64,000 nt of DNA from Parcubacteria group bacterium Gr01-1014_31. GTDB taxonomy: Bacteria; Patescibacteriota; Patescibacteriia; Buchananbacterales; GWA2-38-13. The stretch's first letter is position 1. Every line of letters begins with the position of its first letter. The translations under genes and the position numbers were made by a program. Below are positions 55,245 to 61,537 of this stretch, one piece after another. Below the pieces are notes generated by a model. That model worked only from the letters and a program-made list of their open reading frames with translations. It was not told the DNA's origin and ran no database searches. Location: positions 452,360 to 516,359 of the forward strand of contig VMFR01000001.1 of NCBI GenBank assembly GCA_007376135.1. Reading direction: 5' to 3'.

Positions 55245-57653
<2,409 letters not shown>

Positions 57654-57749
57654 AGCAATAAACTACCCGCCGTCTCCTGCCGGCGTTCCTGCTCATTTTA
57701 GCACTGTCTGACCCAGCGGCGCCAACCAATCGTTTCGCTGCTCACTGCG

Positions 57750-57841
57750 GCCGCCAGGTTGAAAATCCGCCGAAAGAAAGCTCCGGGATCGGTTGGAAGT
57801 AGGGTTCGGCAATCAAAATCTTGGGCCACCGGGTAGCCTAT
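57750..57841 (-). pseudogene. remnant copy of the 3' end (last about 30 codons + stop) of the GT-C membrane protein gene
   Basis: Minus strand encodes (AT)RWPKILIAEPYFQPIPELSFGGFSTWRPQ*. The current gene end at 59783-59875 encodes (VI)RWPKRLIAEPYFRQVPELSFGGFSTWRVR*. Differences are mostly synonymous third positions. Confidence 0.55.
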
Positions 57842-58819
57842 TCAGGCGGAACGAATCTGGCCCTGGTAGCGCTGATATGCTTGTTTTTTGAGCAGAAGTC
57901 GTCGCGCCCTTGTTGGGCTATACGCACCTCTTTTTTTTAGTAAATTTATTACGCTATCTCTCCTTGAACGGCTTTTACTCCCCATCGCCAATTTATTTCT
58001 CCCTAATTTCAAGCCGAGATGCTCGGCCCCGCTAGCGTAGGTGCGTATTTTCGTTTTTGCAGGGTTTACTGGAAGTCTCTGATTATTATCAAAATCAGAA
58101 AGGATTTTTTCCACTATTTTTACGACTGCCGAAATTTTTTCCTGGCTCACTCTGCTTGCGCTGATACCTATGTCGTCTATAAAAATCGCCACTCGAGGAT
58201 CATATTTTTTAAGGAGCTTTTTTACTTCCCGATCAAGGTGAATAAAGGTATCTAAATTACACCACACGGCTAATCGAGTAGAGGTTGCGAAACCTCGAGC
58301 AAGAGTTTTTTCTGTAGACATAGAACCCTTTTGGCCAACGGGAACGCAACATAGACTGGCCAATAGCCGTGATGCTCGGGGGCTACAGCCGCATTTTCTA
58401 TAGAAGAAAAAAAATACTCTCTGTTCACGAATCTGTTCAAAAAAATGCGTGATGTCGAGACTAGCTAAAATCCTCCCTCTCTCTTGCCCCAGTAGACTAC
58501 GGGCTGCTTGTATATGACTTCTGCCTGTCATGCCGCCAAAAATATAATTGGGTACGAGACGATCATGAGGTGCAAGAACCTTCTTATCAATCCGTTCGAG
58601 AAGCACGCCCAATGGAGTGCGGGCCGCACTACGCACAAACTTTCCTCTGTTAGGTTGAGAATTCTCGCTATTATCGCGCCAGTAATAATCAAAGTTACGA
58701 ATCACATCATTAATGAGTGTCAGTGCCTGCGGATAAGGTAAGGCGCTATCGCTAATCGTTTTTGCCAACTCATTCTTGCTACCAATCCTCAATCGCGGGT
58801 ATCGCGGACGGCTAAACAT
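57842..58819 (-). CDS. reverse transcriptase (retron/defence-associated RT-like, 325 aa), AT-rich
   Basis: RT motifs: IFGGMTGRSHIQAARSLL (2a), LDITHFFEQI (3), CVPVGQKGSMS (4, LPQGxxxSP-like), RVAIFIDDIGIS (5, xxDD), and NPAKTKI (6). No maturase or endonuclease domain. Confidence 0.7.
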   Translation of the reverse strand: MFSRPRYPRLRIGSKNELAKTISDSALPYPQALTLINDVIRNFDYYWRDNSENSQPNRGKFVRSAARTPLGVLLERIDKKVLAPHDRLVPNYIFGGMTGRSHIQAARSLLGQERGRILASLDITHFFEQIREQRVFFFFYRKCGCSPRASRLLASLCCVPVGQKGSMSTEKTLARGFATSTRLAVWCNLDTFIHLDREVKKLLKKYDPRVAIFIDDIGISASRVSQEKISAVVKIVEKILSDFDNNQRLPVNPAKTKIRTYASGAEHLGLKLGRNKLAMGSKSRSRRDSVINLLKKRGAYSPTRARRLLLKKQAYQRYQGQIRSA

Positions 58820-59135
58820 AGCGCTTTAAATATTTTGCCCTCACATCGATCAGATACAGCTGTAGTTGACTACCAACGTCAATCAGCGATTTTTCTAGCT
58901 GGGATAATTTTTTTGTGGATGAGGGACTATCGAGCAACAAGAACGGCGTAATCGAACTGGGTTGTACACCCAATTTGTCAGCAAGTTTGATGATAAAATT
59001 TTTGGATACCTCTTTTTGACCCGATTCGATCATCGCAACAAGGACAGTTGATACACCTAAAACATTGGCAAATTCACTCTGCGTTAAATCACTTTCATCC
59101 CGAATTTTTTTTATCAACTCCGGTAGAGTATACAT
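58812..59135 (-). CDS. XRE-family helix-turn-helix protein
   Basis: LTQSEFANVLGVSTVLVAMIESGQK is the Cro/C1-type HTH. Overlaps the RT start by 8 nt. Confidence 0.7.
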   Translation of the reverse strand: MYTLPELIKKIRDESDLTQSEFANVLGVSTVLVAMIESGQKEVSKNFIIKLADKLGVQPSSITPFLLLDSPSSTKKLSQLEKSLIDVGSQLQLYLIDVRAKYLKRYV

Positions 59136-59149
59136 AATGTAAATATGAC

Positions 59150-59600
59150 TAAGGGGTGGCTACATGAACCGCATGATGTCCATCACGATGCGAATGATCC
59201 AGATAATGATCCGAATGATTCGCAGAATGTAGACCAGCATACGTGCTAGCCACCCCTACACACGGAACGCCCAGACTAGAGTTTAGATTGGAGAAATGAG
59301 TTGCATTCATAGATAAGGGGTTTATTAATTAACCGACCTTTACCCAGGTGACTGATTACTCCAAAGCTTATGGCCATTTATTCCGAAATGCGGCGTTCCG
59401 GCGGAACTCACGGCCATAAGCTGTGAGCAATCATTAGACATCGACCTAATATCTTACAAGCACTTCCCTGCCCCTCGTCCTCCCCATCATCTCCTACACA
59501 TCTACTGGTTGTTTTTTTGAGGCAGATACTTTCGCTTGAGACAGCACCCGGGATTCCCCGGGGCAATAATTCATCCCCCCTACGGCACTAGCAGGAGAGA
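59150..59600 (-). ncRNA. candidate structured non-coding RNA region upstream of the HTH-RT operon (retron msr/msd-like or RT-associated ncRNA)
   Basis: 11-bp inverted repeat AGGGGTGGCTA…TAGCCACCCCT (59151-61 and 59247-57) brackets GGATCATT repeats. Further hairpins: GCTTATGGCC…GGCCATAAGC with an inner GTTCC-GGC-GGAAC; CCCGGG-attc-CCCGGG; AGACAC-ttaac-GTGTCT. No ORF of at least 60 aa with a plausible start. Confidence 0.35.
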
Positions 59601-59782
59601 GATCCAGACACTTAACGTGTCTAAAATCATCGGATTCAACGGCCATCACTCTACTCCGTTTTCAATGTACCGTGATTGAATCATATACTTTTCGTATATG
59701 AATGTCAACTGACTTATCCACAGAGCAAAACACGAGCTAGGGTGCCGCGAAGAGTAAAAATATTGACTTTGGTAAGAACATT

Positions 59783-61537
59783 TTACCTCACCCGCCAGGT
59801 AGAAAACCCACCAAAGGAAAGCTCGGGTACTTGCCGGAAGTACGGTTCAGCGATCAACCGCTTCGGCCAGCGGATGACCTCTTCGCGGCCGCCGTTCGGA
59901 TAGTCGTCGAGCCACAGGTACAGGAGGTAGTCGTCCCCGTCGCCGTACAGGATGAGTTGTTCGATGGGATCAAATACGTTCTTGCGGTGGAACCACTCGG
60001 AAAATTGCGCCGGGGTTTTCGCCAGCGCGAGTATGCGCAGATAGCGGAGGCGCTCGGAGAATCGGGCGGCCGGATGCGAGTAGTGCTGATTGTAGGAAAT
60101 GAACTGTGGCAGCGCAACCTGCGCCTGGAGCGGCGGGAAGAAACTCAAGGCCGTCCTCTTGGCGTCCTCCGGATGCGTGCGGAAATAGTCAGCAAAACGG
60201 GCGGCGGTAACGCTCCCCTGCCGCACTGCTGCTAAGCGCACGGCGGTGGACTCCTGGTCCAGCCACAGGCCGAACGGCAGCGATACGGCAATCGCGATCC
60301 AGGCGAGCAAAAATTTCGTCGCCCCCGTCTGCGGAACGGCGGCCGAAAATCGTTCCCGCAAGACCGCGGCAACGCGGGTGAAACCCTGGGCGGGTGCGCT
60401 TCCCGCGATCCAGACGGTCAGTCCATAGGCGGCGCCGTACGCCAGAATAATCTCCCCGAAAAACGTAAAGCCGCGCGCGCCCTGGAACGGCGCGTCGCCA
60501 AACATCGTCGCTACCAGCGTAACGGCCTGCCAGACGTAACACCCCAACAGCAGCTGCAGCGCGGGACGGATCAGCGGCCGCCGGCGATACGCGACCAACG
60601 CGACCAGCCCGACCCAGAGCCAGGCGCTGCGGGGCGTGAACTCCACGGGCGGAAAAAAATTGAGATCCGAGGCGATAAAGAACGCCGGCTGCCAATTCTC
60701 CATCCCATGCCGGACGTAGCTTGCCGCCAACGGCCACCAGTACCAGAGGGACCCCAAGGCGACAACACCCCCGATCGCTCCCCAGGAAACAAGCTCGCGC
60801 GCCAGCGACCGCGGATTCCGCCAGGGCAAGAACGTCAGCACCGCGATGCCGACCATCACAAACCACAGGTAGTACGTCGTGAACAACGCCGCCCCCAGTA
60901 CCCCGATGGCTAGCATGTGCAGCAACTGCCGCTCGCTGCCCGCCAAAAAACGCCGCACCACGGTGAACCACAAGAGAACCCCCAAAGCGGAGGCAAACTC
61001 ATACGGTTTGGCCAGCACCGACGGAAAATCCACGGCCAGGAACGGGGTGAGCGTCAACAGCAGCGGAAAGAGCGGATTGGCGATGGGCCCGTCCGAGTCA
61101 CGCCGGACCGTGCGCCAAAACCACCAGGAAAGCAGCGGAATGACGAGGGACGCAATGACCCCGGCAAGCTTGGCCGCCCCAACCCCCGTCAGACCAAACA
61201 TTCGGGCGATGCCGCCGATCGAATAAAACCACAGCGGCGGATAAAACGCCGGCAATTTGGCATACGTAAGATCATGCCCGATGCCGTCGGTAATGACCCG
61301 CTGGTAGAACGCCGTGGTCAACGCTTCGTCCCCCTGCAAGCCGCCGAACGGCAGAGGGGTTTGCCAGAGTATGACCACCTGCAGGGTAACGATGGCAGCG
61401 ATCACCGCACCCGCCGCCAGCAGGCATCGCCGCGCGATCTTGCGATTCGTCCATAGGCCCACCCCAAGCACAGCAAACAACAGCATCTTGCCGAACGCGA
61501 GGATATGAATCGTGGACGGCTGGAACGGTGGCAGCAT
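59783..61537 (-). CDS. polytopic membrane protein, GT-C-fold glycosyl/arabinofuranosyltransferase-like
   Basis: About 12 TM helices then a soluble C-terminal domain. Weak resemblance to AftA/GT39-type transferases. Its 3' end is duplicated downstream of the RT cassette. Confidence 0.4.
   Translation of the reverse strand: MLPPFQPSTIHILAFGKMLLFAVLGVGLWTNRKIARRCLLAAGAVIAAIVTLQVVILWQTPLPFGGLQGDEALTTAFYQRVITDGIGHDLTYAKLPAFYPPLWFYSIGGIARMFGLTGVGAAKLAGVIASLVIPLLSWWFWRTVRRDSDGPIANPLFPLLLTLTPFLAVDFPSVLAKPYEFASALGVLLWFTVVRRFLAGSERQLLHMLAIGVLGAALFTTYYLWFVMVGIAVLTFLPWRNPRSLARELVSWGAIGGVVALGSLWYWWPLAASYVRHGMENWQPAFFIASDLNFFPPVEFTPRSAWLWVGLVALVAYRRRPLIRPALQLLLGCYVWQAVTLVATMFGDAPFQGARGFTFFGEIILAYGAAYGLTVWIAGSAPAQGFTRVAAVLRERFSAAVPQTGATKFLLAWIAIAVSLPFGLWLDQESTAVRLAAVRQGSVTAARFADYFRTHPEDAKRTALSFFPPLQAQVALPQFISYNQHYSHPAARFSERLRYLRILALAKTPAQFSEWFHRKNVFDPIEQLILYGDGDDYLLYLWLDDYPNGGREEVIRWPKRLIAEPYFRQVPELSFGGFSTWRVR

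Follow-up and report, generated by a model that had tools for sequence, protein, structure and literature searches.

Structured leader RNA with a hairpin-embedded mini-ORF in a probable, divergent Type VI-like retron locus of Patescibacteria

Background

Type VI retrons are the sole retron class in which the complementary DNA (cDNA) turns a toxin on and not off, and the coupling between the two events is an open question in both preprints that deal with them. In Retron-Vpa2 of Vibrio parahaemolyticus, a hybrid RNA (hyRNA) of ~470 nt carries msr-msd followed by the coding sequence of a small protein (SP), the ribosome-binding site (RBS) and start of which lie in stems. The helix-turn-helix (HTH) protein and the reverse transcriptase (RT) bind this hyRNA, and the multicopy single-stranded DNA (msDNA), which the derepression of SP translation requires, is synthesised only after a trigger; a 7-nt direct repeat common to msd and the riboregulator has been proposed as the mediator, and the 5' stem-loop of the msDNA is essential (10.1101/2025.10.22.683967). 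The present analysis deals with a related arrangement in Parcubacteria group bacterium Gr01-1014_31, where a spacer at 59136-59780 of a 64,000-nt stretch of the contig VMFR01000001.1 (hereafter referred to as the window) precedes an HTH gene and an RT gene and probably belongs to a divergent Type VI-like retron.

The inverted repeats that flank the SP gene and sequester its RBS in the Type VI hybrid RNAs 'resemble', in the words of their authors, the a1/a2 repeats of retrons (10.1101/2025.10.22.683967; 10.64898/2026.04.27.721009). Retron RTs in general carry NAxxH in their region X and the VTG triplet in their region Y (PMC7736814). A clustered SP is found in only ~27% of the HTH-bearing Type VI entries and is not an obligatory feature, and one entry from the Candidate Phyla Radiation (CPR), Candidatus Levybacteria, is already part of the Type VI census (10.64898/2026.04.27.721009). 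Retrons in Patescibacteria are not discussed in the literature searched beyond this one census entry.

Very small hydrophobic or amphipathic helical toxins, with the Shine-Dalgarno (SD) sequence locked in a long mRNA structure, are also encoded by hok/mok/sok and tisB/istR-1. TisB has 29 aa with a polar stripe, and in hok/mok the overlapping upstream frame mok is translated to allow translation of the toxin.

The reading that we consider probable is that the spacer holds the leader RNA (~520 nt), together with its promoter, of a divergent, Patescibacteria-type, Type VI-like retron, i.e., a 'hybrid RNA' in the sense of Vpa2, in which a mini open reading frame (ORF), F2, would encode the toxin and the hairpin around it, HP-B, would keep the toxin silent. 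Ahead of HP-B, the leader contains an msr-like 5' domain, a variable region (VR) and a long hairpin, HP-A. Segments X and Y, in the 5' domain and in HP-A respectively, are candidates for an a2/a1-like helix, the helix P-LR joins the apical loop of HP-A to a strand just upstream of HP-B, and a second ORF, F1, overlaps F2 in a different phase (Table 1). The hybrid-RNA architecture as such is already published; what is new is the unannotated putative effector F2, the overlapping F1 and P-LR. The comparison of homologous sequences establishes the architecture of the locus, the covariation of HP-A, P-LR and HP-B, the selection on F2, the openness of F1 and the lack of SD sequences before the HTH and RT genes, and it suggests the functions that are proposed for them below.

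Methods

Homologous loci were collected by a genome scan with the RT alignment, which yielded 67 loci, mostly from Patescibacteria, 61 of them with the HTH gene directly upstream of the RT gene; individual loci are denoted below by L and a number. The 800 nt upstream of each HTH start were extracted for comparison. Counts of ORFs and hairpins rest on 45-47 loci and counts of structural pairs on a 45-locus alignment. The expected numbers of open frames were obtained by resampling of synonymous codons, with the peptide of the other frame held fixed. Nucleotide homology of the window with the closest loci (8-10) reaches ~59742.

Assignment of the operon to a Type VI-like lineage

The reading strand of the region is the minus strand, on which the region fills the whole spacer from the stop (59783) of a glycosyltransferase-like gene to the HTH start, and the order of the operon is leader RNA, mini-ORFs, HTH and RT. 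An earlier sequence-only reading had taken the stretch for the structured RNA partner of an HTH-RT operon of the retron type, and the database matches of both proteins bear this out: the HTH protein matches Pfam HTH_3 (3.7e-12) and PADLOC HTH_VI (3.6e-13), and the RT, a member of Pfam RVT_1, has PADLOC RT_VI as its best model (8.4e-30, 102 bits) with RT_III-A as the runner-up (3.8e-16). Type VI retrons are recognised by a Cro/C1 HTH protein of 91-110 aa, the gene of which directly precedes the RT gene or overlaps it; here the protein has 107 aa and the two genes share an 8-nt overlap. They are also recognised by an RT of the Type VI clade; the RT here has the Type VI model as its best match, with a score and an identity far below those of the canonical members. 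The third feature, an SP gene that follows the structured RNA, precedes the HTH gene and has a sequestered RBS and start, has its counterpart in F2 within HP-B as a matter of architecture only, F2 being neither a member of the SP clusters cl2075, cl2760, cl3272 and cl3897 (75-79 aa, three-helix bundle) nor like the 55-aa SP of Vpa2. Neither the HTH gene nor the RT gene has an SD sequence of its own in the window. The RT matches a Parcubacteria group bacterium Gr01-1014_31 protein at 100% identity, and its relatives at 50-66% identity, which number in the hundreds, come almost all from Patescibacteria bins.

Several points weigh against the proposed reading. The RT_VI score of 102 bits compares with 279-335 bits for the canonical members, to which the RT is 24-26% identical in the alignment; region X reads SHIQAARSL where canonical Type VI RTs have SHVTNANAH (NAxxH is absent), region Y reads HLG (HLGL) in place of VTG (VTGV) with only the G retained, and the catalytic motif is FIDD instead of YADD. 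F2 has no detectable similarity to the known SP clusters and is far shorter than the published SPs (55-79 aa). The sequence points to two candidates for the msd template, VR and/or HP-A, and a fixed-column count of covariation for the X/Y helix on a 12-locus alignment was not significant. For six Type VI retrons, including the CPR one from Candidatus Levybacteria, msDNA was not detected in E. coli under basal conditions (10.64898/2026.04.27.721009). The loci compared are phylogenetically related, so that the shuffle statistics given below overstate their independence, and the function of the whole locus is deduced from sequence alone. The lineage is described here as divergent and Type VI-like; its place may be inside the Type VI clade or beside it.

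Another possibility is that the locus is not a strict retron but a Type VI-related RT-HTH-toxin module. Its RT would have given up or altered msDNA synthesis and might produce some other cDNA or be non-catalytic, and the RNA would be no more than a riboregulator and scaffold. Such a module would agree with the low RT_VI score and with the six tested retrons without detected msDNA. Nevertheless, we regard it as unlikely: F[IV]DD and the other RT blocks are invariant across the RT family, which argues for selection on polymerase activity, the RNA retains the msr-like domain, the variable hairpin and an a2/a1-like layout, and Vpa2 is likewise without msDNA until triggered (10.1101/2025.10.22.683967).

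The RT family also has a Cys-rich insertion of ~10 residues with invariant C145, C157 and C158, which is missing from the canonical Type VI RTs.

Selection on F2 and openness of F1

Homologues of F2 of 20-31 aa (39-48 aa in some lineages), with a conserved AUG and a conserved stop, are present in ~46 of the 47 loci. The F2 frame is open across its overlap with F1 in 46/46 loci against 17.8 expected, while the third frame is open in 0/47. Over the same 60 nt, the mean pairwise BLOSUM62 score per residue is +0.83 for F2, -0.36 for F1 and -0.28 for frame 3, and the synonymous share of the nucleotide differences among 79 closer pairs is 42%, 14% and 24%, respectively. In the last 20 codons of F2, the entropies at codon positions 1, 2 and 3 are 1.61, 1.15 and 1.79, and 64% of the second positions are T. 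Indels among the closest loci in the region bracketed by the inverted repeat are multiples of 3. Such patterns, drawn from the alignments, show purifying selection at the amino-acid level to be acting on F2.

The F2 peptides are predicted to form cationic amphipathic helices (mean hydrophobic moment 0.55, net charge ~+3), the charges of which fall within a median arc of 100 degrees as against 200 degrees after shuffling. Neither F2 nor F1 has a match in Pfam or PADLOC, and F2 shows no sequence similarity to the Pfam toxin families. None of the five F2 sequences queried (0/5) was found in the public protein sets, where several F1 sequences are present as 'hypothetical protein'. In L061 (Peribacteria; ~2480-2650), an F2-like helix forms the C-terminus of a single-frame, SP-like protein of 56 aa, and in L030, L034, L038 and L049 the F2 frame is extended to 39-48 aa. 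Since the F2 frame extends to an SP-like protein in some lineages, it is F2 rather than F1 that would correspond to the canonical SP, and F2 is proposed to be a toxic effector equivalent to the SP of Type VI. A nonsense codon lies inside F2 in L031, and in L044 F2 and the hairpin are kept while F1 is broken.

F1 is 47-61 aa long in most loci. F2 is shifted by +1 relative to it (F1 being in the -1 phase), the phase is constant in nearly every locus, and the F1 stop lies 11, 14, 17, 20 or 23 nt past that of F2 and 1-16 nt ahead of the HTH start in most loci. The F1 frame is open in 46/47 loci against 9.8 expected; over the 60 nt on the 5' side of HP-B, it is open in 42 of 45 loci and the other two frames in 9 and 6. 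The distance from its ATG to the hairpin downstream is 43-67 nt in most loci and reaches 137 nt where the first in-frame ATG lies farther upstream; AAGGAGG-type SD sequences precede it in the Saccharibacteria-type loci. The amino-acid sequence of F1 is not conserved, and within the overlap, variability is lowest at its third codon position and highest at the first. F1 thus appears to be translated with its sequence unconstrained, and it is proposed to be a leader or coupling ORF.

The roles could be reversed, with F1 (53 aa) as the real small-protein effector and F2 as a passive consequence of the hairpin and of the F1 codons. F1 is indeed the ORF that the gene callers of some genomes list as a hypothetical protein, its length is like that of the published SPs (55 aa in Vpa2), it is open nearly everywhere and it has clear SD sequences in one subclade. 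The conservation statistics run the other way, with a negative BLOSUM62 score, the smallest synonymous share and the least variable third position all on the side of F1; the apparent F1 motifs LGVPx and VAAL coincide with covarying RNA helices, F2 is open in far more loci than the F1 peptide predicts, and the F2 frame extends to a 39-56-aa SP-like protein in L061 and several other loci. An effector role for F1 is very unlikely in the light of this evidence.

The 56-aa SP-like protein of L061 also prompted consideration of a programmed +1 frameshift from F1 to F2. It was judged less likely because F2 is equipped with a conserved AUG and an SD-like sequence of its own, F1 is open up to the HTH start, and the window has an in-frame UAG six codons before the F2 AUG.

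The inverted repeat as the basal stem of HP-B

The inverted repeat, the short direct repeats and the hairpins that had been described from the sequence alone are all present at their places and are conserved in 45 homologous loci, well beyond what chance would give, and the hairpins carry compensatory changes across these loci. A perfect inverted repeat as long as the present one (loop <=120 nt) arose in 1 of 300 dinucleotide-preserving shuffles of 59136-59780, and the whole 647-nt spacer folds with z = -5.1. HP-B, of which the repeat forms the basal stem, reaches -52.6 kcal/mol (z = -6.6) when folded on the minus strand, as against -41.3 kcal/mol for the plus strand, and in 41/45 loci the fold of the sense strand is likewise the stabler one. 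The hairpin is found in 46/47 loci; its basal stem is 91-92% paired with compensatory changes at 11/11 pairs, and its inner part is stabler than synonymous recodings of F2 in 45/45 loci (mean z = -2.8).

The 5' arm of HP-B (59257-59247, AGGGGUGGCUA) is G-rich and SD-like (AGGGGUGG in the window; AGGAGG in L055-L060, where it stands 4-6 nt ahead of the F2 AUG). The F2 AUG lies 9-23 nt (mostly 12-19 nt) inside HP-B, past the G-rich arm, and the 3' arm (59162-59152) overlaps the F2 stop, with the F1 stop following next. On these grounds the 11-bp repeat is best read as an RBS-sequestering stem around an effector ORF and not as a boundary of msr-msd, because the 84 nt bracketed are protein-coding and it is 5' of the repeat that the conserved structured RNA is found. 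The counterparts of the 11-bp repeat in the Type VI hybrid RNAs are the SP-flanking repeats that sequester the RBS.

The direct repeats inside HP-B (AATGATCCA, AATGATCCG and AATGATTCG, at 59193-59222) are of the ATGAT type and are what the R-I-I codon repeats of F2 look like from the opposite strand. A plus-strand mini-ORF in the same block had been taken as probably a by-product of these repeats, and the comparison bears this out, its frame being open in 41/45 loci against 38.6 expected from the composition of the sense gene; its strand is antisense to the operon, and it is in this respect that the earlier account does not hold. The two direct copies of ACCCCUUA (Table 1) are both complementary to the SD-like AGGGGU of F2, and either could sequester it. 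A AACCCUUA-type motif recurs ahead of the F1 ATG in many loci.

HP-B might instead be an attenuator, a terminator or an RNA-stability element that separates an abundant leader from the HTH-RT message, the small ORFs being irrelevant. The stem has a GC-rich base, past which UUUAG or UUUAAUUUUU stands in several loci, and the hyRNA of Type VI is much more abundant than the downstream mRNA (10.1101/2025.10.22.683967). The tail in the window is, however, not U-rich, no terminator-like site was found in a scan of the window, and two open frames in constant phase, the conserved AUG, SD and stop, and the selection on amino acids would be left unexplained. This reading in its exclusive form is highly improbable, though the roles of attenuator and of toxin silencer are not mutually exclusive.

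Next to no credence is left for the original suggestion that the repeat is the a1/a2 pair of a short msr-msd with the enclosed 84 nt as the msDNA template: the repeat is perfect, conserved and covarying, stands directly upstream of HTH-RT on the operon strand, encloses a long hairpin as an msd would and belongs to a kind that the Vpa2 paper itself likens to a1/a2 (10.1101/2025.10.22.683967), but what it encloses is the coding frame F2 on the operon strand under purifying selection, with its most variable position third, its high synonymous share and BLOSUM62 score and its indels in multiples of 3, and 84 nt are too short for msr plus msd (layout as in PMC7736814) and leave more than 400 nt of conserved upstream domain unexplained.

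Hairpin HP-A and the loop-to-strand helix P-LR

The long stem GCTTATGGCC around GTTCC..GGAAC, noticed earlier from the sequence, is HP-A. On the minus strand it folds with -43.8 kcal/mol (z = -8.4), and its apical loop reads GUUCC..CGGAACGCC..CGGAA. RNAalifold on 12 loci gave 19 pairs, 10 of them compensatory, and the stems are 72-82% paired in 45 loci.

P-LR is formed by the central part of this loop and a strand that lies inside F1. Nearly all of the 45 loci have this pairing, in more than 20 sequence variants and with the strands a constant 117-143 nt apart; 93-99% of the cells are paired, and compensatory changes occur at 9/9 pairs. For the whole tested structure, 69% of the cells are paired against 59% in shuffles, and the covariation score is 0.345 against 0.186, with 0/500 shuffles as high; sliding the partners by 1-3 columns approximately halves the pairing. 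The motif GUUCCG is repeated, with one copy within the 3' strand of P-LR and another at 59409-59404.

The candidate X/Y helix and the template

Segments X and Y are 17 nt long, 82% complementary and 243 nt apart. A register-free search in each locus placed X at +61 to +76 from the -35 element in 14/34 loci, with unrelated sequences, against ~2 expected by position. The X/Y helix is provisionally regarded as a better a2/a1-like candidate than the 11-bp repeat. If formed, it would enclose the msr-like hairpins, the variable hairpin and the 5' half of HP-A, as in classical retrons (PMC7736814). In that case the start of the template would lie ~5 nt from the 5' strand of P-LR, and the cDNA would have at its 5' end a GTTCC/GGAAC stem-loop with the GUUCCG repeat, a parallel to the essential 5' stem-loop of the msDNA in Vpa2 (10.1101/2025.10.22.683967).

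VR is the other candidate for the template, because of the retron layout (PMC7736814) and of the stem-loop SL3 of Retron-Sen3 (10.64898/2026.04.27.721009). It tends to fold as a long imperfect hairpin (z from -0.5 to -5.8 over 12 loci; -5.8 in L013 and -1.6 in the window). Its centre (~59455-59510, minus strand) is strongly purine-rich and C-poor (GUAGAUGUGUAGGAGAUGAUGGGGAGGACGAGGGGCAGGGAAGUG), and similar A/G-rich stretches occur in L001, L003, L005 and L014. A CCCGGG-attc-CCCGGG hairpin reported from the sequence is present at ~59547-59563. A pairing of the 5' end with the segment 3' of VR (59662-59678 with 59428-59444) was also considered and dropped, as it is not conserved by eye in L014 and L009.

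Promoter and 5' domain

The putative sigma-70-type promoter ahead of the leader has 11/12 consensus matches and a predicted transcription start at ~59673, and TTGACA-like and TAnnnT elements stand at the same relative position in most homologous loci. A palindrome lies over its spacer and -10 element; the core TATAC-N5-GTATA is kept in the 12 closest loci, and the palindrome is likely to be the operator for the Cro/C1-type HTH protein.

A DnaA-box-like 9-mer stands just upstream of the -35 element in the window. Such a 9-mer (<=1 mismatch) is found 14-19 nt, start to start, upstream of the -35 element in ~25/55 loci, in either orientation, and 40 DnaA-like boxes are seen overall against 13.6 expected from shuffles. 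It is present in L002, L005, L007, L009, L013, L015, L017, L021, L023-L025, L029, L031, L034, L046, L049, L051, L053 and L066, and absent from the Saccharibacteria-type loci. This distribution suggests that DnaA, or a protein of the same specificity, may regulate the retron promoter, and the position of the box hints that retron expression may be tied to replication status.

The conserved 5' domain consists of one hairpin and two helices. The hairpin AGACAC-GUUAA-GUGUCU (59622-59606), which the sequence-only reading had listed as AGACAC-ttaac-GTGTCT, has z = -5.4 and is 94% paired, with 4/6 pairs compensatory. The helix AUCUCUCUCC/GGGGGGA (59603-59594 with 59580-59573) is 78% paired, and the weak 5'-end helix ACGGUAC/GUGCCGU (59673-59667 with 59588-59582) 64%. 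RNAalifold recovered only the small hairpin of this domain, and the two helices were tested by hand.

A search of 57500-60100 against Rfam with cmscan at an E-value threshold of 10, which covered the retron, group II and DRT-related models, gave no family match, only three chance-level hits far below the gathering scores. The sole plus-strand promoter-like match that could drive an antisense (Sok-like) RNA (59111-59138, 9/12) is at chance level.

Comparison with the described systems

The locus resembles Vpa2 in the order of structured RNA, small (here putatively toxic) ORF, Cro/C1 HTH and RT, and in the length of the leader (~520 nt predicted here, ~470 nt there). In both, the RBS and start of the effector are sequestered in stems, the coding sequence itself makes up a structured arm and inverted repeats tie this arm to the upstream RNA. 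Both also have a short direct repeat common to the putative template and the riboregulator (GUUCCG here) and an effector with a hydrophobic helix. The two differ in the size of the effector, F2 having 20-31 aa (26 aa in the window) as against 55 aa with no sequence similarity, and in F1, which overlaps the effector over its full length and ends at the HTH start, there being no such ORF in the canonical Type VI locus. The link to the upstream RNA here is the loop-to-strand helix P-LR with strong covariation, the hosts are Patescibacteria and the RT is without NAxxH and VTG.

Sen3 and the cl2075 systems share with the present locus a conserved inverted repeat that flanks the SP gene, an SP RBS placed in the basal stem, an SP coding sequence under RNA-structural selection and an internal long stem-loop with a non-conserved centre, SL3 there and VR here (10.64898/2026.04.27.721009). 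In Sen3, however, the IR1 arm lies in SL3 and IR2 past the SP stop, the stem is without significant covariation, and the SP has 79 aa with a helical-bundle core and is found in Proteobacteria, whereas here both arms hug the ORF, 11/11 pairs covary and the hosts are CPR bacteria.

With hok and tisB the locus shares a small, putative toxin with a locked SD sequence, the charges of F2 falling in a 100-degree arc, and the role proposed for F1 is like that of mok. It differs from them in that no antisense promoter is found above chance level and that it is embedded in an RT operon and tied to a structured RNA. The likeness would be one of function and not of family.

The likeness to the classical retrons lies in the conserved 5' part with small hairpins, the long variable hairpin that follows and the candidate X/Y helix that would enclose them (PMC7736814). 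Unlike in those, the 11-bp repeat is not the enclosing helix, the conserved branching G is not pinned down and X/Y competes with the conserved local hairpin HP-A.

A canonical Type VI system was observed on the IncU resistance plasmid LC735978.1 of Aeromonas caviae (L069; 1058-2481 and 2934-3086; RT_VI 8e-101, HTH_VI 2e-34). It has the same gene order and an HTH/RT overlap, a single unannotated SP-like ORF of 49 aa (MNTKPNHNQQALSKTKSKKWKGYVWKGIKWILKLGVWMYRINQLLDGDS) with no F1-like frame, and a Hok/Gef toxin gene ~450 bp downstream. The …LLD near the C-terminus of F2 was suggestive by eye of the C-terminal helix of this SP; the length is too short and homology is not claimed.

Proposed mechanism and its implications

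In the mechanism that we propose, F2 would be translationally silent with its RBS locked in HP-B, while translation of F1 would carry ribosomes through HP-B and deliver them to HTH and then to RT by coupling; F1 may also gate the initiation of F2 in the manner of mok and hok. The upstream RNA would supply the template of the RT, be it the variable hairpin, HP-A or both, with priming probably beside the X/Y helix. The putative priming site and the 5' strand of P-LR are only ~5 nt apart, so that P-LR would be broken as soon as reverse transcription sets in; the region ahead of HP-B would thereby be remodelled and cDNA synthesis tied to translation of the toxin, a link for which there is genetic evidence in Retron-Vpa2. 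The HTH protein probably represses the promoter and, like its counterparts in Vpa2 and Sen3, may serve as an antitoxin or hold the RT in check.

A more specific version can be offered only tentatively, as one that is possible but on balance doubtful: F1 and F2 would form a dual-coded pair, with a TisB-like F2 locked in the hairpin, a translate-through F1 that gates F2 and feeds HTH and RT, and P-LR as the switch for release of the toxin.

If this version is true, it would be a concrete structural answer to the question of how toxin translation comes to be derepressed by msDNA synthesis in Type VI retrons. The lineage is compact, and its 9-bp helix with more than 20 covarying variants, its RBS stem with compensatory changes at every pair and its minimal 20-31-aa putative effector name the exact bases to mutate. 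That the proposed effector gene F2 is missing from the public annotation and the non-conserved F1 annotated in its place also matters for the censuses of defence systems in CPR and for the finding of mini-proteins in 'non-coding' retron RNAs.

Coordinates of the features

Table 1. Features of the leader, the mini-ORFs and the operon genes, in positions of the window
Feature	Position	Strand	Description
Sigma-70-type promoter	59680-59708	-	-35 TTGACA 59708-59703, 17-nt spacer, -10 TATGAT 59685-59680
Palindrome TCATATAC-N5-GTATATGA	59681-59701		8 bp perfect; over spacer and -10
DnaA-box-like 9-mer TGTGGATAA (= TTATCCACA on + strand)	59714-59722	-	5 nt upstream of -35
Conserved 5' domain	59556-59673	-	msr-like; one hairpin and two helices
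Segment X AUGGCCGUUGAAUCCGA	59630-59646	-	direct repeat of HP-A 5' arm; complementary to Y; candidate a2-like
Variable region (VR)	59440-59560	-	~107-221 nt between loci; candidate msd-like template
HP-A	59354-59434	-	long conserved hairpin
P-LR 5' strand CGGAACGCC	59392-59400	-	in HP-A apical loop; 9 bp perfect with 3' strand
Segment Y UCGGAAUAAAUGGCCAU	59370-59386	-	HP-A 3' arm; alternative partner of X; candidate a1-like
P-LR 3' strand GGCGUUCCG	59263-59271	-	5 nt upstream of HP-B, inside F1
ACCCCUUA direct copies	59150-59157 and 59314-59321	-	just before HTH AUG and F1 AUG, respectively
ORF F1	59149-59310	-	53 aa, MNATHFSNLNSSLGVPCVGVASTYAGLHSANHSDHYLDHSHRDGHHAVHVATP; ends 13 nt before HTH AUG
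HP-B	59152-59257	-	106-nt hairpin; basal stem is the 11-bp inverted repeat
Inverted repeat arms	59152-59162 / 59247-59257		11 nt, 100% complementary, 84 nt apart
ORF F2	59160-59240	-	26 aa, MLVYILRIIRIIIWIIRIVMDIMRFM; unannotated
HTH gene	58812-59135	-	107 aa, Cro/C1 type
RT gene	57842-58819	-	325 aa; Pfam RVT_1, PADLOC RT_VI

Genomic context of the cassette

The cassette is a low-GC island (0.40-0.47 as against ~0.62 in the flanks), within which no integrase gene was found. On its two sides stand the copies of a 57-nt imperfect direct repeat (57751-57807 and 59792-59848; identity 77%, distance 2041 nt). The one at 59792-59848 forms the 3' end of an AftA-like glycosyltransferase gene (…EPYFRQVPELSFGGFSTWRVR*), and the one past the RT gene codes for a displaced alternative end, EPYFQPIPELSFGGFSTWRPQ*. 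Because the flanking copies encode alternative ends, the cassette appears to have been inserted into the 3' end of the AftA-like gene while restoring that end.

No relatives of the cassette were found among the IMG/VR viral contigs, so that an origin from phage is not supported. Near relatives occur in bins labelled Micrarchaeota, Planctomycetota, Gammaproteobacteria, Bacteriovorax and Bdellovibrionales (L010, L014, L024, L034, L035, L038, L040, L043 and L044), which would reflect either horizontal spread or mis-binning.

Beyond the RT gene, an ORF of 802 aa (55245-57653, minus strand) looks, by eye from its translation, like a fusion of a glucose-6-phosphate dehydrogenase N-terminal part with a C-terminal NAD-binding part of the 6-phosphogluconate-dehydrogenase type.

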